The notes below the pieces were generated by a model. The model saw only the letters and a program-made list of their open reading frames with translations. It was not told the DNA's origin and searched no databases. A stretch of DNA of 64,000 nucleotides from Thermoanaerobaculia bacterium (lineage in GTDB: Bacteria; Acidobacteriota; Thermoanaerobaculia; UBA5066; Gp7-AA6), in NCBI GenBank assembly GCA_041912555.1, contig JAYRMU010000063.1, positions 103,236-167,235 of the forward strand, in the 5' to 3' direction. The first letter of the stretch is position 1, and each line of letters begins with the position of its first letter. Below are positions 8,290 to 51,048 of the stretch, in pieces. The position numbers and the translations under genes are program-made.

Positions 8290-9765
8290 ATGGCCAGACG
8301 TCTTCCGAAACCGGCCTTCATCGCCTCGCTCGCGCCGAAAGACGCGGAGGACGCGAAGCGCCTCGTCGCGCGCGTTCCGGCGGCGGCCAACGCGATCGAG
8401 ATCCGGATGGACCTCGCGGAGAGGCCGATGCCGGCGGCGGCCGTGGCGAGCCTCGACGCGCGTCCGATCCTCCTGACCTGGCGGTCCCTGGCGGAGGGCG
8501 GGAAGTTCTCGGGATCGGCCGAGGAGTACCGGCGGCTCGTGACGGAGGCCTATGACGCCGGGGCGGCCGTGGACGTCGAGCACGCGCGAGGCCTCCTGTC
8601 CGACCGCTCGCTCTTTCCCGAGCGCGACCGCGTCGTGGTCTCGCTGCACTCGCCCTTCTCCCTGCCGGACGACTGGGAGGCGCGCCTGGCCGCGATGCGC
8701 GCCGCGGGCGCGGCGGCCGTGAAGCTGGTGGCGGGCGCGCCGGACGTGGCGGCGGGGCTGCGGATCGCGGGGATCCAGCGCCGCAGCGGCCCGGACGCCG
8801 CCGTCTTCCCGATGGGTCCGACGAGCGCGCCCGGGCGCGTCCTCTCGGCGCTCTTCGGAGCCGCCCTCGTGTACGGTCCGGTCGACCGGGACACCGCACC
8901 GGGCCAGGTCCCGATCGCGGACCTGCTCGACGTCTACGGGGTCGACCGGCCGCGGCCGATCGAGGCCCTGTTCGGGGTGATCGCGGGAAGCACCGCCCGG
9001 TCCCTCTCCCCGCGCCTCCACAATGCGCTGTTTCGCTCGCGCGACCTGCCGTACCTCTACCTGCCGCTGCAGGTCGCCGATTTCGAGCGCGAGAAGCCCC
9101 ACGAGATCGCGTTCGATCCGCCGTTCCGGGGCTTCGCCGTGACCCAGCCCTGGAAGCTCGCCGCCGCGCGCGCGGGCCGGCCCTCCGACGACGTCCGCCT
9201 GATCGGGGCGGCGAACACGCTCGTGCGCGAGCGCGGCGTCTGGCGAGCCGAGAACACCGACGTCGACGGCGTCTTCGATCCTCTCGCCGACCACGGAACG
9301 GGAGAGGGGCGCAGCGCGGTCGTCGTCGGCGCGGGCGGCGCCGCGCGCGCCGCCGTCGTGGCGGCGAGGCGGCTCGGGTACGAGGTGGCGATCGCCGCGC
9401 GGCGCGACGCCGAGGCCGACCGGCTCGCCGAGACCCTGCGCGTCGACTCGCTCGCGTGGTCGGACCTTCCGGCCAGCGAGGCGGACCTGTACCTCAACGC
9501 GACGCCGGTCGGCTGGCGGGACGACGAGCCGTCCGCCATCCCCGAGCGCGTGCTCGAGGGACGCCCGCTCGTCTTCGACTGCGTGTACCGGCGCGACGGG
9601 CGCGAGACCTCGACGATCCGGGCGGCCCGCGCCGCGAAGTGCCCGACGGTGGACGGCCTGCGCATGTTCGTCGTGCAGGCGGTTCGCCAGGCGCAACTCT
9701 TCGGCGTCGAGGGGGTGACCACCGAGGAAGTCGCCCGGATCCTGCGCGCGGGATTCCCGTCGTGA
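8290..9765 (+). CDS. aroDE: bifunctional 3-dehydroquinate dehydratase (type I) / shikimate 5-dehydrogenase fusion
   Basis: The N-terminal half is AroD-like (IEIRMDL...KLVAGAPD). The C-terminal half is AroE-like (SRDLPYLYLPLQV...NTLVRERGVWRAENTDVDG...VVVGAGGAARAAVVA...LYLNATPVG). Confidence 0.8.
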   Translation: MARRLPKPAFIASLAPKDAEDAKRLVARVPAAANAIEIRMDLAERPMPAAAVASLDARPILLTWRSLAEGGKFSGSAEEYRRLVTEAYDAGAAVDVEHARGLLSDRSLFPERDRVVVSLHSPFSLPDDWEARLAAMRAAGAAAVKLVAGAPDVAAGLRIAGIQRRSGPDAAVFPMGPTSAPGRVLSALFGAALVYGPVDRDTAPGQVPIADLLDVYGVDRPRPIEALFGVIAGSTARSLSPRLHNALFRSRDLPYLYLPLQVADFEREKPHEIAFDPPFRGFAVTQPWKLAAARAGRPSDDVRLIGAANTLVRERGVWRAENTDVDGVFDPLADHGTGEGRSAVVVGAGGAARAAVVAARRLGYEVAIAARRDAEADRLAETLRVDSLAWSDLPASEADLYLNATPVGWRDDEPSAIPERVLEGRPLVFDCVYRRDGRETSTIRAARAAKCPTVDGLRMFVVQAVRQAQLFGVEGVTTEEVARILRAGFPS

Positions 9766-11296
9766 GCCGACGCGGCGGGGAGCGCGAAGCCTTCCTGGCG
9801 AAGGCGCGGGCCGGCCGGTGCGTTGCGGTCGCGCGGGAGCTCCCCGCGGACCTCCTGACCCCCGTGATGCTCTTCTCGCGCATGCGGGCCGCGGGGGAGG
9901 AGTCGTTCCTTCTCGAGAGCGTCGAGGGCGGGGAGACCGTCGCGCGATACACGTTCCTCGGCACCCGCCCGAGCGCCCGCTGGACGCTGCGCGACGGCGT
10001 GGCGAGCGTCGAGCGGGACGGAAAGAGCGCCCGTCCGCCGGGGCTCCCGCTGGCTTCGCTCGAGGCGCTCGCCCGGAAAGAGCCCTTCGTGCCCGACCCC
10101 GATCTCCCGCCGCTCTGTTCCGGCGCCGTCGGGTTCCTGTCCTACGACGCCGTGCGCCTCTTCGAGGAGATCCCGGACCGCCACGCCCGCGAAGGCGCGA
10201 TTCCCGACGCGCTCTTTCTCCTCTTCGACGCGGTCGCGGCCTTCGACCACCCGCGGCAGCGCCTCGTCCTGCTGACCACGCTCGATCTCACGGACGGCGG
10301 CGACGCCGGCGCCGAGGCGGACGGCGCGATCGCGCGGCTCGACCGGCTCGAGGCCCTGGTGCACGGCGGCGCGGCGGCGCCGAAGGCTCCCTCGCGCCGC
10401 GCCGCCCCGGCGGACGGCTCCGGTTTTCAGGCCGCCGTCCCGAGGGAGCGCTTCCTGGAGGCCGTCGGCGTGATCAAGGAGGCCATCGCTTCCGGCGAGG
10501 TCTACCAGTGCGTCCTGTCGCAGCGCTGGACGGCGCGCCTCGGGATCGATCCGTTCGCCGTCTACCGCGCCCTGCGCGCCCTGAACCCGTCGCCCTACCT
10601 CTTCTATCTCGAAACGCGCGAGGCGACGATCCTCGGCTCCTCGCCCGAGATGCTCGTGCGGTGCCGCGGGCCCCGTGTCGAAACACGACCCATCGCCGGG
10701 ACCACCGCCCGCGGCGCGACGCCCGAGGACGACGCGCGCCTGGCGGCGGCCCTGCTCGCCGATCCGAAGGAGCGCGCCGAGCACGTGATGCTGGTGGACC
10801 TCTCGCGCAACGACCTCGGGCGCGTCTGCGAGGTGGGCAGCGTGGCCGTGCCCCGGTACGCCACGGTCGAGAAGTTCTCCCACGTGCAGCACATCGTGTC
10901 GGAGGTGCGCGGCCGCCTCGCGGCGGGACGCAGCGCCGCCGACGCCCTGGCCGCTTGCTTTCCGGCCGGAACGCTGACGGGCGCCCCGAAGATCCGGGCG
11001 ATGGAGCTGATCGACGGCCTCGAGGCGAAGCGCCGCGGGATCTACGGCGGCGCGGTCGGCTACTTCGATGCGGCCGGCAACTGCGACATGGCGATCGCGA
11101 TCCGGACCGCGGTGGTGGAGAAGGGGTTCTGGAAGATCCAGGCCGGCGCCGGCATCGTCGCCGACTCCGTGCCCGAGCGCGAGTACGCCGAGGCCGAGTC
11201 CAAGGCCGCCGCGCTCTTTCGCGCGATCGAACTGGCGGGCGACTGGTTCGGCTCCGCGAGTCCGAAATCCGAAGCTCGACATCCGGAATCCCCCTC

Positions 11297-26308: not shown

Positions 26309-26363
26309 CCGGGGGCTCCGGGCCCTCTCCGGGGGGCGCCGCCGGGCGGGGTGCCAAAGAAAC

Positions 26364-26392
26364 TTGACACCCTCCGCCTGAGCTTGTGATCA
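26364..26392 (+). promoter_or_regulatory. candidate promoter at the left edge of the low-GC island
   Basis: Perfect TTGACA (26364-26369), 17 nt, then TGATCA / extended TGTGATCAAAT. It lies about 55 nt after the dacB stop. Confidence 0.3.
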
Positions 26393-26725
26393 AATATCGC
26401 TGATTCGTAATTTGGGCCGCGCTGTCGGCCCGCTAACCAGGTGGGAATCCATGAAGCCACGGTCGGTGTACGGGGCGAAGCCTGCCCATTTGGGCCGGTT
26501 TTCCGCTGTTTCCGTGGCCTTTGGACGAGGTTTCTCGACCCGGGCATTCGGCCAGGGTCTTTTGGCGAAAAGAGGTGTCTATGACCTGCTTCGGCGGCTC
26601 AATTCCCTGCTGATATAGCGCAAATCCTCTAGCTAAAGGCTTTAACCTGTGGCACATATTTGTGTCCTCGGGTTTTGTGTTTTTGCCGTACTTCAGTTAC
26701 TCTGCGGCCAACATCACGTTAGGAG

Positions 26726-27130
26726 ATGGCAGTGGAGATCTCGGACGATTTCGAAGTCAGTTCCTCAGCGGAAGAAATCTTCGAGCGAGAAGTTGAGCAA
26801 GTGTTTCAGGAAACACTTGGTTTGATTCACATCGCCCTTGTTTCCCACTACCAACTTTCCGAACAGGAAGCCACTGAGCTGGAGAAGGACCTCTTCGTCT
26901 GGTTTCGTCGCTTCTGTTATCGCCCTGGGCCGTCAATCAAGGAGAACCGACCCTACCTGCTTGTTGCCTGCTGCCAGTTCGCGCGCGAGTACCAAAAGTA
27001 CGTCGTAGGGACAGGGGTGCGCAGTTCCGATGAGAAGCTTCATAGCCTCTTGCAGCGCGAGCCGGCTGATGTAGCGCACGATTTCGCTCGCAGCCTCCAA
27101 CTGTTCGACTTTCGGCGGTCCGATGCCTGA
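26726..27130 (+). CDS. small protein with a sigma-70 region-2-like fold only (paralog of 28341..28718); no region 4
   Basis: EQEATELEKDLFVWFRRF...RPYLLVACCQFAREYQKYV aligns with KEDARDIVQDAFLLAIAKI...RAWLIQVVDHLALNHQRKV of the second copy and with the ECF sigma region 2.2-2.4 pattern. AGGAG lies at 26721-26725. The real start may be the in-frame GTG at 26732. Confidence 0.55.
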   Translation: MAVEISDDFEVSSSAEEIFEREVEQVFQETLGLIHIALVSHYQLSEQEATELEKDLFVWFRRFCYRPGPSIKENRPYLLVACCQFAREYQKYVVGTGVRSSDEKLHSLLQREPADVAHDFARSLQLFDFRRSDA

Positions 27131-28241
27131 CACAGCGAAGATCCTCCTGTTCAAGGGTCGGCGTTCGTCGCTCGTTCCAGTCTCGCATGAAGGGGCCAAG
27201 GCTCGCGCCAGATCCTTCCTTTCGACATCCGCCGAAGGTCGAACGCAAATCGCAATCGACGACACTTACGGCGATGCTGACGTCTTGATGTCGATCTGCT
27301 CGGAACTCTGGGACGTCATCAACGCCAAGCCAACGGTCGTCTCCGAGGAGGCTCCGAAGATCTACAGATGGCTCTCTCAGAAGACCGCTGACGATTTCTT
27401 CTTTGACGAGCGCGACTTTTTTCTCGGCGAGAGCGCATTGCTAGCGGGTGGAAGCGACCGACTCCTCGGAAATCGAATCGAGGCAGAGTCTTGGTTCGAT
27501 AGGTCAGACGCTAACTTCAGACATACGGTCGCTCCAGCTGCACACCTCGCGCGCGTTTCGTATAACCGACTCGCGCTGCGATATGACATGAACCGCCACG
27601 ACGACGTGATCGAGCTTTTGCCGTCGACAGCGCTGACCTTTGAACGGCTGGGTATGAAGGTGGAGCTGGCAAAGTGCCGGTTCCTGGAGGCTATGAGCCT
27701 GAAGATCAAGGGGCGGGTTGACGAGGCGACGGTTCTCCTAGAGGCGCTAGTCTCGGGTGAGGACGCAGATCTCCCCATTCGCGCCACCGCGCTGTTGAAC
27801 TTGGGGAGCATCTACTCCTCCAATGGCCAGCCCGATCGCGCGATCCGGGCCTTTACGCAGGCAAGACCGATCTTGGAATCGTCGCGCCGCCTTGCAGCTC
27901 TTGCAGATATGAAAGTGATGCTTGGCGAAACTCTTCGCGCGATGGGTAAGCCATCTGAAGCCCTCGCCGCCTATCGCGAGGCTGTGAACGACTACGTAGA
28001 ACTTGAGATGTCGACTCGCGTCGCATATGTGAGGATCTTTCTCGCAGAGGCGCTGCTCGAAGCTGCCAGACCCCGCGAAGCCGAATGGGAAATCCTGGCC
28101 GCCCTACCGACGATTCAAGAGCAGAAGATGGTTCCGGAAGGTCTTGCAGCGATCGCTGTGCTAAACGAGTCAGTTAGGCAGCGTAAGACGGATGCCAACG
28201 CCCTCCTAAAGCTCCGAGAGTGCTTGCAGGCAAAGAGCTGA
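27123..28241 (+). CDS. all-helical TPR-like protein, partner of the upstream sigma-r2-like gene (paralog of 28762..30183)
   Basis: Overlaps the upstream gene by 8 nt. TPR-like repeats are present (LLNLGSIYSSNGQPDRAIRAFTQA..., ALAAYREAVNDYVELE...). The C-terminus YVRIFLAEALLEAARPREAEWEILAALPTIQEQKMVPEGLAAIAVL is homologous to YLRVLLAETLIASQKEQDAVAELVAAIPVIERECLASEGLAAVALL of the second copy. Confidence 0.55.
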   Translation: MPDTAKILLFKGRRSSLVPVSHEGAKARARSFLSTSAEGRTQIAIDDTYGDADVLMSICSELWDVINAKPTVVSEEAPKIYRWLSQKTADDFFFDERDFFLGESALLAGGSDRLLGNRIEAESWFDRSDANFRHTVAPAAHLARVSYNRLALRYDMNRHDDVIELLPSTALTFERLGMKVELAKCRFLEAMSLKIKGRVDEATVLLEALVSGEDADLPIRATALLNLGSIYSSNGQPDRAIRAFTQARPILESSRRLAALADMKVMLGETLRAMGKPSEALAAYREAVNDYVELEMSTRVAYVRIFLAEALLEAARPREAEWEILAALPTIQEQKMVPEGLAAIAVLNESVRQRKTDANALLKLRECLQAKS

Positions 28242-28340
28242 CCTGACAGGGGTTCAGGTATTCGGCTGTGCCGGTTTGCCGCCCGGTAGCAACGTCGCGA
28301 CAATATGTAGTTAGAGTTCCCTAGTCTTCGCCCGCCGGAG

Positions 28341-28718
28341 GTGCGCGTGGAGTTACGGGCCAAGCCGGATCGGCCCCGGTTAGCAGCGGCAAGACCCGCC
28401 CGGACTGCGATGTCGGAAGAAGATCTGCAGAGTTTCTACCTCGAGACCTTCCTGCCACTCGTCCGGAGGGCCACCTGGAGGCACGGTCTTTCGAAAGAGG
28501 ACGCTCGGGATATCGTCCAGGACGCCTTCCTGTTGGCTATCGCGAAAATCGACTCCGCGCGAAACCCCAGAGCGTGGCTTATTCAAGTCGTCGACCATCT
28601 TGCACTCAACCATCAACGAAAGGTTCTTCGAAGGGCTCGATTGATGGACCGGTGGACGAGTCTGGAGCGGCGGCAGCTCGCGGAGAGAGAGTCGGACCGA
28701 GAGGGGGTGGACTATTAG
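28341..28718 (+). CDS. ECF-type sigma-70 region 2 domain protein lacking region 4 (truncated/stand-alone sigma2)
   Basis: FYLETFLPLVRRATWRHGLSKEDARDIVQDAFLLAIAKIDSARNPRAWLIQVVDHLALNHQRKVLRRARL matches the ECF sigma region 2.1-2.4 pattern (DxVQ[ED]xF...W[LI]...I..N...D..R). The protein ends about 25 aa later, with no HTH region 4. Alternative starts are GTG 28347 (GGAGG 6 nt upstream) or ATG 28410. Confidence 0.6.
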   Translation: MRVELRAKPDRPRLAAARPARTAMSEEDLQSFYLETFLPLVRRATWRHGLSKEDARDIVQDAFLLAIAKIDSARNPRAWLIQVVDHLALNHQRKVLRRARLMDRWTSLERRQLAERESDREGVDY

Positions 28719-28761
28719 CTCGAAACTGAGCAATGTTGCCATCGCCGGCTGGCTCGACGAG

Positions 28762-30183
28762 ATGAAGGTACGGTCGGTTCAACTAGGCCTGAGCGTTAGC
28801 CAGGCAACGGCTCGCGCAGACGAACTGCTGCGGGAGAGTGAGGCGCGGGCGTCGTGGGACCCGACGGTCCAATGGAACGAGGATCTGCCTGATGTGCTTC
28901 ATGCCCTTTGCCGGATTCTAAGGACGGCTGACCCAGGTGACCATGCTGGCGATGCGAAGAGTGTCTACCAGTATGCGTTGCGGCTTCCGTGGCCAGACGA
29001 GCTGGCTGACGAAAGAAGCGAAATTCTCGCGGCCCTCGCCTACCAGACGTGGAGTAGCTGCCTGCGGGATGGGCGATTCTCGGAAATGCGCGTGTTCGAA
29101 GCGAAGTGCGACATGCACGCACGAGAGCAGGAACTCGTTCGTGATTTTCTCAGTGTGCCTCTCGAGCAGCGGTCAAAGCTCCTCAGTGCGAGGTTCCTGT
29201 CAGACGCGTCCGTATTGATTTCAGCCATCTCCACATTGGATCGTCTAGTCAACACGGATCCAAGAACGACTCTTTCGTGGGGGCGGCAGCTTCTTGAGTG
29301 GGTATCGCGAGATCAGTCCTTGAGAGATCATGAGAGATCTTGGTTTGTTTGTCAGCTGTCGGTTTCGATCGCTGGCGCCCTGCGACACCTCGGGCACATG
29401 AACGAGGCGATGAATTGCTTATCCCGGGCGGAATCGGCGTTTGATCTTAGTCGCTTGAGCCCAGTACTAGGGACGCGGTTCGAATACGCCCGATTGACCC
29501 TGCTGTACGACCGGCGGGAGTACGTGGAGCTTCTCGGGCGTCTTCCCACGCTAGTGAGCAAGTTGGAGAGGTATGGGAGTGGGTCAGAACTTGCGAAGGG
29601 GCGGTTGCTTCATGCCTGCGCCCTCAAGGCAGTTGGGAGTCCTGAGGCGGTGGCTGCGTTTGAGAGCTTGCTGGTGACGGCTGAGATTCGCGACGATCGG
29701 CTGCTTCACGGCCTGACGCTCATGCACCTCGGTAATCTCCTGTTCGAGCAGGGGCAGTGCCTAAGGGCAGCTCTACTCTGCGAGCAGGCCCTCCAGCTGT
29801 TGAATCCGACTGGGGTCAAGTGGGCGATCGCTGACCTCCACGCCGTCATTGCGGAGGCTCTGCGACAAAAGGGTGACCTAACAGGCGCTGAGCGAGCGTT
29901 TCGGTCGGCGATTGAAGCGTGCCGCAGTCAGGGCGTTGCGGTTCGGACCTCTTACCTTCGGGTGCTTCTGGCTGAGACGCTGATTGCAAGCCAAAAGGAG
30001 CAGGACGCGGTCGCGGAACTAGTCGCGGCTATTCCGGTCATAGAGCGAGAGTGCCTTGCGAGCGAGGGGCTCGCAGCAGTGGCCCTGCTTAGAGAGGCAT
30101 TGACGCGACGTGAGGCCGACTCGGCGGCGGTTCGTGTGTTAAGGGAAGAGCTCGACGCCATGAGAAAGCGAGCCGGAAGCTGA
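28762..30183 (+). CDS. all-helical TPR-like protein, second copy (paralog of 27123..28241)
   Basis: 473 aa. TPR-like repeats are present (LMHLGNLLFEQGQCLRAALLCEQALQLLNP..., DLHAVIAEALRQKGDLTGAERAFRSAIEA...). The C-terminal roughly 90 aa are collinear with the first copy. Confidence 0.55.
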   Translation: MKVRSVQLGLSVSQATARADELLRESEARASWDPTVQWNEDLPDVLHALCRILRTADPGDHAGDAKSVYQYALRLPWPDELADERSEILAALAYQTWSSCLRDGRFSEMRVFEAKCDMHAREQELVRDFLSVPLEQRSKLLSARFLSDASVLISAISTLDRLVNTDPRTTLSWGRQLLEWVSRDQSLRDHERSWFVCQLSVSIAGALRHLGHMNEAMNCLSRAESAFDLSRLSPVLGTRFEYARLTLLYDRREYVELLGRLPTLVSKLERYGSGSELAKGRLLHACALKAVGSPEAVAAFESLLVTAEIRDDRLLHGLTLMHLGNLLFEQGQCLRAALLCEQALQLLNPTGVKWAIADLHAVIAEALRQKGDLTGAERAFRSAIEACRSQGVAVRTSYLRVLLAETLIASQKEQDAVAELVAAIPVIERECLASEGLAAVALLREALTRREADSAAVRVLREELDAMRKRAGS

Positions 30184-30324
30184 AACCTCGCGCCGAGATT
30201 CGATGCTGGGTGTCTGTGCGCCCAGGAGCCTTTCCTTCACAGTTCATCTGCAGAAGAAGAGGGGCCGCCGTGCCGTTCCTCTCCTAGGGCCGACAGGGAA
30301 AACCATCGTTCGGGTATCGTCAGG

Positions 30325-30972: not shown

Positions 30973-31731
30973 ATGGCGCTTTCTGGTCTGGGCCTCTTCC
31001 TGCTCGAAGCCTGTGCGGGCACCGCCTTTCTGCTGCTCTTCTTCCCGCCGAAGGTGCTGGGAAGGGGGTTCTTTGCGCTCCACGGGGGGCTGGCGGCCCT
31101 CTTTGCCGGCCTGGCCCTCCTGGTCAAGCCCGCGGGCCTTCCGCCCGCGACCGCGGCCGTGGCCACGGGGCTGCTGGTCGCCTATACGCTCCAGGCGCAC
31201 TGGGGCTGGGCGAGCCAGGGCCGGCTCGTGCTTCTCGCGGGGGCGGCGTGCGCGGGGTGGTGTCTGGCCCGCGTCGCCGTGGTGGCGCCGCTCCACTCGG
31301 GAAGCGGGTGGACGGTCGTCGGAGCCGCTGCGGGCGGCCTCTTCTTCGGGTCGGTCCTCCTGATCATGAACCTCGGACACTGGTACCTCGTCTCGCGCGC
31401 CCTGCCGTTCCAGCTGCTGGCGCGGGGGGCGGCGCTCTTCGCCGGCCTCGCGATCTTCCGCACCCTCTACCTCGGCGTCTCGGTGGCCTGCCACCCCGGA
31501 TCGGAAGGCCTTCACACCCTCCTCTCCCTCGAGCGGGACGCGCTCTTCTTTCTCTTCCGGGTCCTGTGGGGAATCGTCGGGCCGCTCGCGCTGTCCTATT
31601 TCATCTGGAGGACCGCGGAAATGAAGTCGAACCAGGCGGCGACGGGCCTCCTCTACGTCGCGCTCGTGTTCGTGCTGATCGGGGAGCTCCTGTCCTCGTA
31701 CCTGACCGTTGCGACGGGATTCCCCGCGTAG
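30973..31731 (+). CDS. integral membrane protein (hypothetical, about 7 TM)
   Basis: Hydrophobic throughout. No recognisable motif. Confidence 0.5.
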   Translation: MALSGLGLFLLEACAGTAFLLLFFPPKVLGRGFFALHGGLAALFAGLALLVKPAGLPPATAAVATGLLVAYTLQAHWGWASQGRLVLLAGAACAGWCLARVAVVAPLHSGSGWTVVGAAAGGLFFGSVLLIMNLGHWYLVSRALPFQLLARGAALFAGLAIFRTLYLGVSVACHPGSEGLHTLLSLERDALFFLFRVLWGIVGPLALSYFIWRTAEMKSNQAATGLLYVALVFVLIGELLSSYLTVATGFPA

Positions 31732-50963: not shown

Positions 50964-51048
50964 GCGAAAGTGGCGGAACTGGTAGACGCGCAGGTTTCAG
51001 GAACCTGTGGGTAACACCGTGAGGGTTCGAGTCCCTCCTTTCGCACCA
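50964..51048 (+). tRNA. tRNA-Leu (anticodon CAG), 85 nt including CCA
   Basis: GCGAAAGTGGCGGAACTGGTAGACGCGCAGGTTTCAGGAACCTGTGGGTAACACCGTGAGGGTTCGAGTCCCTCCTTTCGCACCA. Anticodon loop TTCAGGA. Long variable arm. Near-identical in architecture to E. coli tRNA-Leu(CAG). Confidence 0.9.

Follow-up and report, generated by a model that had tools for sequence, protein, structure and literature searches.

A conserved cassette of Thermoanaerobaculia pairs a sigma region-2 protein lacking region 4, and a probable cryptic paralogue, with TPR proteins

What might a cell do with a sigma-factor-like protein that ends after region 2 and is encoded just ahead of a large tetratricopeptide repeat (TPR) protein? 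The question is raised by a 64-kb stretch of DNA (the window) from a Thermoanaerobaculia bacterium of the Acidobacteriota (GCA_041912555.1, contig JAYRMU010000063.1). At 26.4-30.3 kb of the window, the list of open reading frames (ORFs) contains a cassette of four genes on the forward strand, which we name O1 to O4 in order. The original prediction, made from the sequence alone, had seen here two tandem pairs, each of a small protein with the hallmark of sigma region 2 and a large TPR-like partner, and had recognised no described system in them. A sigma factor is by definition anchored through two domains, sigma-2 and sigma-4, and the classification of extracytoplasmic function (ECF) sigma factors deliberately excludes proteins that lack sigma-4. 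The only two natural systems known to us that are without sigma-4 are gp55 of phage T4 and the split SigO-RsoA pair. Analyzing the cassette and its relatives, we find two diverged copies of one module, in which a small sigma-2-fold protein is followed by a TPR receptor of the Rap/NprR/MalT-like kind. The four ORFs lie where they had been placed, with the likely starts of O1 and O3 moved to nearby GTG codons (Table 1).

The sigma assignment is carried by O3, the small protein of the second copy. O3 matches Sigma70_r2 of Pfam at 37.5 bits (cut-off 24), over positions 3-67 of the 71 in the profile. Its best NCBIfam match is of the SigJ type (E 4.9e-7), and its nearest relatives in the PDB are the sigma-2 domains of SigC, SigJ and SigR. 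Searching O1, O2, O3 and O4 against Pfam, we obtained no region-4 match even at E <= 10. The best 120 of the 325 O3 homologues are likewise 95-133 aa long and carry PF04542 only, so that the predicted absence of region 4 held. Judged by what defines an ECF sigma factor, O3 has sigma-2 at or above the Pfam gathering score and no sigma-4. Because sigma-4 was looked for and not found, the cassette falls outside that definition.

O3 begins with a basic N-terminal extension; a complete sigma-2 domain follows, then the first part of the linker (RK..RR..L..RW) and a variable acidic C-terminal tail. Aligning the homologues, we find the invariant residues FY..F.PLVRRATW.HGLSKEDARDIVQDAF...NPKAWLIQVVDHL..N..RK..RR..L..RW, which span regions 2.1-2.4 and the first linker residues; the variable acidic tail comes after them. 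The invariant 2.2-type DARDIVQDAF and 2.3/2.4-type WLIQVVDH..N..RK segments are both kept in O3. As the invariant residues cover the whole of sigma-2 and the first residues of the linker, the alignment marks the O3 domain as a functional one and not as a decaying fragment. A pseudogene or an artefact of truncation was ruled out by the region-2-only length throughout the family together with the strong constraint. A comparison of homologues and ribosome-binding sites puts the likely start codon 5 nt past a GGAGG at 28337-28341.

The large proteins, O2 and O4, are paralogues with 31% identity over 343 residues (BLASTP, E 8e-42). Their collinearity had been noticed from the sequence and is real; its restriction to the C-terminal 90 or so residues did not stand, as the paralogy covers all 343. 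In Pfam and NCBIfam, both proteins match only generic TPR and MalT/AfsR-type profiles, O4 reaching 36 bits with TPR_MalT, under the cut-off of 45. The structural model of O2 (predicted local distance difference test score, pLDDT, 90; predicted template modelling score, pTM, 0.85) is an unbroken 18-helix solenoid, and it contains no helix-turn-helix (HTH) or other domain. Since the model is a pure solenoid, O2 supplies no region-4-like element, which answers for O2 the initial question of whether the TPR protein contributes such an HTH. The resemblance to ECF groups with a TPR extension, of the ECF42 kind, fell for the same reasons, namely the generic TPR and MalT/AfsR-type matches and the lack of an HTH in the O2 model. 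Performing structure comparisons, we find that O2 folds like the sensor domains of Rap, NprR and MalT at a sequence identity of only 7-12%, and that eukaryotic TPR scaffolds score slightly above these against the model. The resemblance is therefore one of fold class and not of family.

The first small protein, O1, is far more cryptic. O1 gave no match in Pfam or NCBIfam, BLASTP found no significant similarity to O3 (E 1.7), and a first profile-profile comparison (hhalign with shallow alignments) returned a probability of 0.4%. The O1 profile rebuilt from 67 diverse members is collinear with the O3 family, O1 21-94 aligning with O3 4-73 (P=2.4e-4 in a single pairwise test). A search of the PDB with the hidden Markov model (HMM) of the O1 family gave no matches; Foldseek on the O1 model returned nothing significant, although its top match was an ECF sigma factor. 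O1 consists of a degenerate sigma-2-like three-helix core and a conserved C-terminal segment, and we consider it very probable that the core is a strongly diverged sigma-2 domain. The hallmark of sigma region 2, claimed at the outset for both small proteins, is thus confirmed by Pfam for O3; O1 has no recognizable hallmark in its sequence and joins the family by predicted fold and profile only. The two pairs are paralogous in substance, O2 and O4 by BLASTP and O1 and O3 by the diverse profile and the predicted fold.

O1 is also the most conserved protein of the cassette. Its identity across species is 61-90%, on a par with the housekeeping neighbours, compared with 52-82% for O3, 35-65% for O2 and 25-43% for O4. 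Viral contigs held no relatives of the O1 family. Its likely start, chosen by the same comparison as for O3, comes after an AGGAG at 26721-26725. The start of O2 overlaps the stop of O1 by 8 nt (ATGCCTGA), an overlap that indicates translational coupling of the two genes. Three cysteines of O1 (C64, C82 and C83, the last two forming the CC pair in VACCQFAREYQ) are invariant in a 33-sequence Thermoanaerobaculia alignment and are not kept in distant family members; the pattern would allow a redox or metal role specific to the lineage.

Scanning one genome per species, we collected 60 loci of the Thermoanaerobaculia type from about 58 genomes. Nearly all loci of sufficient length share one order: helicase (reverse strand), dacB, O1, O2, O3, O4, hydrolase and membrane protein. 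This order persists where dacB identity has fallen to 56%. Among metagenome-assembled genomes (MAGs) of Thermoanaerobaculia/Acidobacteriota, homologues of O1 number in the hundreds, as do those of O3. O2 comes directly after O1 in 71 of 72 loci, and the pair recurs in three distant lineages, so that the pairs are indeed syntenic elsewhere. O3 is present in 48 of 52 loci, and in 43 of these 48 a recognizable TPR gene is next. Some species hold a second, divergent O1-O2 pair within the cassette (L042 3598-5083, L047 8331-9822 and L060 6703-8221; 55-63% O1 identity), which indicates that the module duplicates as a unit. Two loci (L027 and L046) contain O1-O2 with O3-O4 undetected within the fetched locus. 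In five long-read MAG contigs (L036, L054, L055, L061 and L062), many tblastn matches, those to the helicase and dacB included, came in frame-shifted pieces. This fits assembly indel errors rather than pseudogenes, and it lowers the apparent conservation in these five.

Compared with O2, O4 has an additional N-terminal module (N-module; Table 1), and the wider family connects this module to the small proteins. The O1 family is rare: an exhaustive HMMER search of 1.84 billion entries gave 85 representatives at E<=1e-3. In three distant lineages (L064, L067 and a contig of ERR12037362), O1-like proteins of 116-143 aa are encoded directly upstream of, or overlapping, a gene for a 369-aa TPR protein. 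Another 16 proteins, of 222-271 aa, have the O1-like domain at the C-terminus and the O4 N-module fused at the N-terminus. A profile of the N-terminal 140 residues of the fused proteins scores 43.3 bits on O4 residues 8-91 and matches the N-terminus of O2 weakly. In L064, the last part of an O3 orthologue (58% identity) overlaps the fused gene, and an O1-like gene and an O2 orthologue lie alongside on the opposite strand. In 59 of 70 loci, the N-module is at the head of the gene that comes after O3. The six fused proteins that were searched against Pfam gave no match. As the N-module is fused to an O1-like domain elsewhere and heads the gene after O3 here, it would seem to be the element that works with the sigma-2-type proteins.

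The distant loci have features of their own. In L064 (1461-4769) and in the ERR12037362 contig (genes 5203 onward), O3-like and fused N-module/O1-like genes adjoin a large RHS-repeat/YD-shell toxin gene, which may point to a regulatory target in those lineages; the cassette of the window has no RHS gene beside it. Two further proteins join an O1-like part to other domains, P0371 (344 aa) to a receiver (REC) domain and a GerE/LuxR HTH behind an O1-like N-terminus, and P0366 (335 aa) to an RNB domain. Either protein may be a genuine fusion or an artefact of chimeric gene calling. L064 also contains, at 8816-10737, an ordinary-looking ECF sigma factor (168 aa, regions 2 and 4) coupled to a 475-aa protein in which we read TPR repeats and a ZAS-like H-x3-C-x2-C motif. 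We considered this pair as the ancestral module and set it aside as a separate ECF/anti-sigma pair, because of the ZAS-like motif and because the 475-aa protein is barely related to O2 or O4 (best E 0.001 over 53 aa). In L032 and L048 the cassette contains inserted genes, which we likewise considered as donors of sigma-4 and dismissed; by eye, and not by profile search, they are an amidase-like gene and what reads as the gene for a solute-binding protein.

We then turn to the DNA ahead of O3. The spacer between O2 and O3 is unalignable between species apart from a nearly invariant element, CTCGTGACAATATGTAaGTAaG, which carries an invariant CTCGTGACAATAT and lies about 20 nt upstream of the conserved GGAGG. 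Across 43 distinct loci, the 40 nt upstream of this element hold nothing conserved and no -35-like partner. The element has one match in the whole window; it occurs once per locus, always ahead of O3, and it moves along with O3 where O3 is displaced. The distant L064 lineage retains it as CTCGTGGCACTAT. Scanning metagenomes for the exact 16-mer, we obtained 106 matches. Of these, 30 precede O3, and a further match, at the end of its contig, has a cassette context as well. We read the remaining 75, all on unrelated contigs, as chance: 74 of them have a GC content of 0.28-0.56, and the remaining one (L087, GC 0.63) looks eukaryotic. As no second copy was found, no regulon is visible, and this negative is a weak one in the metagenomes, where an exact 16-mer is a very stringent query. 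We regard the O3 element as a candidate -35-independent promoter or operator, judging from its sequence and placement.

Table 1. Coordinates of the cassette genes and associated elements in the window
Feature	Position (nt)	Strand	Description and basis
O1	26732..27130	+	132 aa; likely start GTG 26732; ORF opens at ATG 26726
O2	27123..28241	+	372 aa; all-alpha TPR solenoid
O3	28347..28718	+	123 aa; stand-alone sigma region-2 protein; likely start GTG 28347; ORF opens at GTG 28341
O4	28762..30183	+	473 aa; TPR protein; residues 127-466 paralogous to O2
O4 N-module	28783-29034	+	Residues ~8-91; extra relative to O2
O3-specific element	28294..28316	+	Consensus CTCGTGACAATATGTAaGTAaG (in the window, GTCGCGACAATATGTAGTTAGAG); alignment of 18 spacers
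Distal CTTGACAC motif (TTGACA-type)	26363..26370	+	dacB-O1 spacer; alignment of 23 upstream regions; putative function
GC-rich hairpin	26537..26563	+	GACCCGGGC-ATT-CGGCCAGGGTC, then TTTT; RNAalifold on 13 loci
O1-O2 promoter candidate, sigma-70-like	26675..26703	+	TTGTGT, 17 nt, TACTCT; consensus match only

The cassette stands out by its base composition, as had been noted from the letters. In 400-nt windows the GC content is 0.50-0.62 within about 26400-30300, against about 0.70 in the flanks, and the cassette as a whole has 0.59 against 0.70. Just four of the 1-kb bins of the window fall below 0.65, and all four are in the cassette, which is thus its sole low-GC stretch. GC at third codon positions (GC3) is 0.64-0.69 in O1-O4, whereas dacB and the genes for the hydrolase and the membrane protein have 0.89-0.90. 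The shift in codon use is general, A/T-ending codons making up about 15-43% for nearly every amino acid as against about 1-18% in the flanks, and the comparison with the flanks revealed no single special rare codon behind it.

This composition had prompted the idea of an island acquired by horizontal transfer. The same dip is present in 33 of 33 loci with both flanks, at about 0.59 inside and about 0.69 outside (for example, L004 5589-9617). At four-fold degenerate sites of conserved residues, the cassette genes are identical between species at 0.12-0.37 and hence saturated. In every one of ten species compared, the GC content of four-fold sites (GC4) is 0.41-0.74 in the cassette against 0.76-0.98 in the flanks, or roughly 0.6 against 0.9 overall. 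Because these sites are saturated and GC4 stays low nonetheless, the low GC is an equilibrium property, presumably maintained by selection or by a local bias of mutation or repair, and not the trace of un-ameliorated foreign DNA. The usual signs of a genomic island are missing as well, since we find no patchy distribution, mobility genes, tRNA site or flanking repeats. The cassette is vertically inherited on the chromosome and is no recently imported island.

Putting these results together, we propose, with a probability of about 0.4, that the cassette encodes a sigma-2 protein without sigma-4 that is gated by a TPR receptor, accompanied by a degenerate mimic pair, and that it acts on RNA polymerase. 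As the sigma-2 domain of O3 is complete and strongly conserved, we infer that O3 would dock through it on core RNA polymerase, at the beta-prime clamp helices. O4 would be the dedicated partner of O3, holding or releasing it on a signal sensed by the TPR solenoid, and would bind O3 through the N-module and perhaps also through the acidic O3 tail in the TPR groove. The freed O3 would work at promoters that need no -35 contact, with the CTCGTGACAATAT element before O3 itself as the first candidate. Acting on its own upstream element, O3 would be autoregulated, and the O3-dependent start would fall about 7 nt downstream of GACAATAT. Autoregulation is typical of ECF sigma factors. O1 would be a degenerate sigma-2 paralogue kept in a fixed ratio with O2, and the O1-O2 pair would serve as a mimic or modulator, competing for the same surfaces on the TPR solenoid or the N-module.

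Several observations weigh against this proposal. O3 scores 27.1 bits with TIGR02937, the profile of the ECF superfamily, under its cut-off of 42.9. For O1, the model behind the sigma-2 call is moderately confident (mean pLDDT 68), and Foldseek found no significant match to it. Searches of Pfam and NCBIfam matched neither TPR protein to a known family of anti-sigma domains. No second copy of the CTCGTGACAATAT element was found in the 64 kb or, as an exact 16-mer, in the high-GC metagenome contigs, and the element could be an operator for an unrelated regulator. The persistently low GC3 has no explanation in the proposed mechanism.

How does the cassette compare with systems already described? 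gp55 of T4 is a sigma-2-only specificity factor that works with co-factors replacing sigma-4, namely gp33 and the gp45 clamp. Such a factor, active at -10-type promoters without a -35 element and aided by accessory proteins, corresponds in general terms to the mechanism that we propose for O3. The T4 system is viral, however, and presumably unrelated in sequence, and in place of TPR receptors it has a flap-binding co-activator and a sliding clamp as accessories. O1 lacks viral relatives. The literature search on T4 late transcription led to PMC7892883. SigO-RsoA keeps sigma-2 and sigma-4 on separate polypeptides and resembles the cassette in its small stand-alone sigma-2-type protein without sigma-4 (PMC7826278, PMC8103513). 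In SigO-RsoA the partner provides sigma-4, whereas the cassette partners are TPR solenoids without an HTH, and no sigma-4 protein is linked to them. In ECF42 factors a single polypeptide has sigma-2 and sigma-4 together with a TPR extension at the C-terminus, about 200 aa long and essential for activity (PMC8999054). The likeness lies in a sigma factor that is functionally tied to a TPR element (PMC8999054); the cassette differs in having its TPR proteins (372 and 473 aa) as separate genes and in the absence of sigma-4. The nearest full-length profile relatives of O3 do include SigJ-type factors with C-terminal extensions, as in ECF41/ECF42-type proteins.

PhyR fuses sigma-2-like and sigma-4-like parts to a receiver, whereas O1 has only the sigma-2-like core and its unique C-terminal segment. 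Neither a receiver domain nor a NepR-like gene was found in the cassette or its flanks by Pfam and the labels of orthologues. O2 shares the large TPR superhelix of the RRNPP receptors (Rap, NprR, PlcR and AimR) and of MalT domain III; unlike them, O2 and O4 have no HTH or phosphatase-type N-domain in Pfam or NCBIfam. We noted no small ORF for a secreted peptide beside O2 or O4, in a search that was not exhaustive. The cassette lacks a sigma-4 partner, a receiver and a fused extension and has nothing viral about it, and so fits none of SigO-RsoA, T4, PhyR and ECF42. Searching the literature, we met no account of sigma-2-only proteins paired with TPR partners, nor any of sigma factors in Thermoanaerobaculia, in agreement with the first impression, in which no described system was recognised. 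The cassette therein represents sigma-derived regulators without sigma-4, of a form for which we found no described equivalent.

The same evidence may be read in other ways. O3, and perhaps O1, might bind the core through sigma-2 without directing initiation; freed from its TPR partner, O3 would then be a global brake on the sigma-binding site, for example in starvation or dormancy, and the element upstream of O3 an ordinary operator or the promoter of another factor. A competitor of this kind would agree with a complete, conserved sigma-2 that has neither sigma-4 nor sigma-3, with an upstream motif that has no second copy and hence no visible regulon, and with TPR partners that look like sequestering receptors. 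We still think it unlikely, since the conservation reaches regions 2.3-2.4 and the first linker residues, which competition for the core does not obviously need, and since the motif has been co-inherited with O3 across lineages without a -35 partner, which suggests a specific DNA target. To be doubted to a similar degree is a partner switch off the polymerase, in which the sigma-2-fold proteins are decoys (compare PhyR), the TPR proteins are anti-sigma-like binders, and the output is an unlinked full-length ECF sigma factor that is freed or captured when the decoy changes partner. O3 is hardly a degenerate decoy, as it passes the Pfam cut-off and keeps DARDIVQDAF and WLIQVVDH..N..RK; the cassettes of the Thermoanaerobaculia loci have no linked gene for a receiver domain, kinase or full-length sigma factor; and the ECF pair beside L064, whose partner has the ZAS-like H-x3-C-x2-C, is a separate pair.

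A sigma factor in two subunits has a precedent in SigO-RsoA, which has been flagged as under-explored by ECF classifiers (PMC7826278), and O3 ends right after the start of the linker between sigma-2 and sigma-4. An unlinked or unrecognized protein would then provide sigma-4-like recognition of the -35 element, and the TPR proteins would be assembly factors or regulators. This is a long shot, given that O1, O2, O4 and the six fused N-module proteins have no Sigma70_r4 or HTH match, that the O2 model is a pure solenoid, that the genes inserted in the cassette elsewhere do not look sigma-4-like (by eye, not by profile search), and that no -35-like conservation is present upstream of O3. A horizontally acquired island, possibly an anti-phage defence cassette as proposed at first, hardly deserves credence. 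In its favour are the deviant composition, the occurrence of TPR proteins in some defence systems and the RHS toxin genes that adjoin the cassette in two distant lineages. Running PADLOC, only O2 gave matches, three weak and generic TPR hits (E 9e-5 to 1e-3), and O1, O3 and O4 gave none, so that no specific defence family could be assigned; O1 is without viral relatives, and no tRNA, repeat or mobility gene accompanies the cassette. Above all, the same site and flanks are found in about 58 species, down to 56% dacB identity, and GC4 is low at saturated four-fold sites in every species compared.

The remaining elements and the neighbourhood of the cassette deserve a short description. The spacer between dacB and O1 (26309-26725, about 410 nt) is conserved across species and has several conserved GC blocks. 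In its distal part, the CTTGACAC motif is followed by the conserved blocks TGTGATnnAAT and GATTCG. As a whole, the spacer has no unusual RNA stability (z=-0.5), and one hairpin alone is supported. This hairpin (26537-26563) has eight pairs, with 96% of cells paired and compensatory changes at three of them; none of 500 shuffles reached the observed value, the slid controls fell to 20-57%, and the structure is present in the single-sequence fold as well. A simple scan for promoters and terminators gave background levels and missed this bulged hairpin. It resembles an intrinsic terminator or attenuator and could terminate dacB, mark where a small RNA of about 160 nt ends, or attenuate O1 from within its leader. 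The sigma-70-like promoter candidate of O1-O2 appears in more distant loci as TTGACT-N17-TACTCT, in conserved alignment columns. Searches for tRNA genes, repeats and Rfam families, aimed at island borders and known RNAs, gave nothing relevant, and Rfam has no match to this spacer.

By the Pfam labels on orthologues, the upstream neighbours are a DinG-like helicase and a Peptidase_S13 protein (dacB), and the downstream neighbour is a UPF0227 alpha/beta-hydrolase, in line with the dacB and esterase flanks read from the sequence. No mobility genes are present at the cassette in the ORF list or the labels of orthologues, as predicted; nor did our searches find flanking repeats around it or a tRNA gene within 20 kb. 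The sole RNA gene of the window, a tRNA-Leu(CAG) at 50964-51048, is about 20 kb off and unrelated to the cassette. Past the hydrolase gene, a 252-aa ORF (30973-31731) shows an AT skew of -0.3 to -0.48. Its orthologues have no Pfam match, and from its hydrophobic sequence we read it as a putative membrane protein; the skew probably reflects T-rich hydrophobic codons.

In the most inclusive reading, which we would call doubtful as a whole, Thermoanaerobaculia-type Acidobacteriota and a few other lineages would possess an unrecognized class of cellular half sigma: a stand-alone sigma-2 protein that, once bound to core RNA polymerase, starts or blocks transcription with neither sigma-4 nor a -35 contact, gated by cytoplasmic Rap/NprR-like TPR receptors through an N-terminal docking module, with a degenerate sigma-2 paralogue as a mimic and the AT-rich equilibrium as part of the regulation. 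Apart from this, a family of sigma-2 proteins without sigma-4 and an even more conserved cryptic paralogue, each wired to a TPR sensor, are fixed across a clade of abundant, uncultured soil bacteria. The cassette has a GC3 some 25-30 points under that of the genome despite saturated synonymous divergence; it is a clean natural example for the question of how bacterial genomes keep their GC high, and it cautions against taking low GC as a sign of horizontal transfer. Should O3 act on RNA polymerase, it would offer a cellular route to -35-independent or sigma-competitive regulation, and the TPR receptors would be a new signalling input into the transcription machinery.

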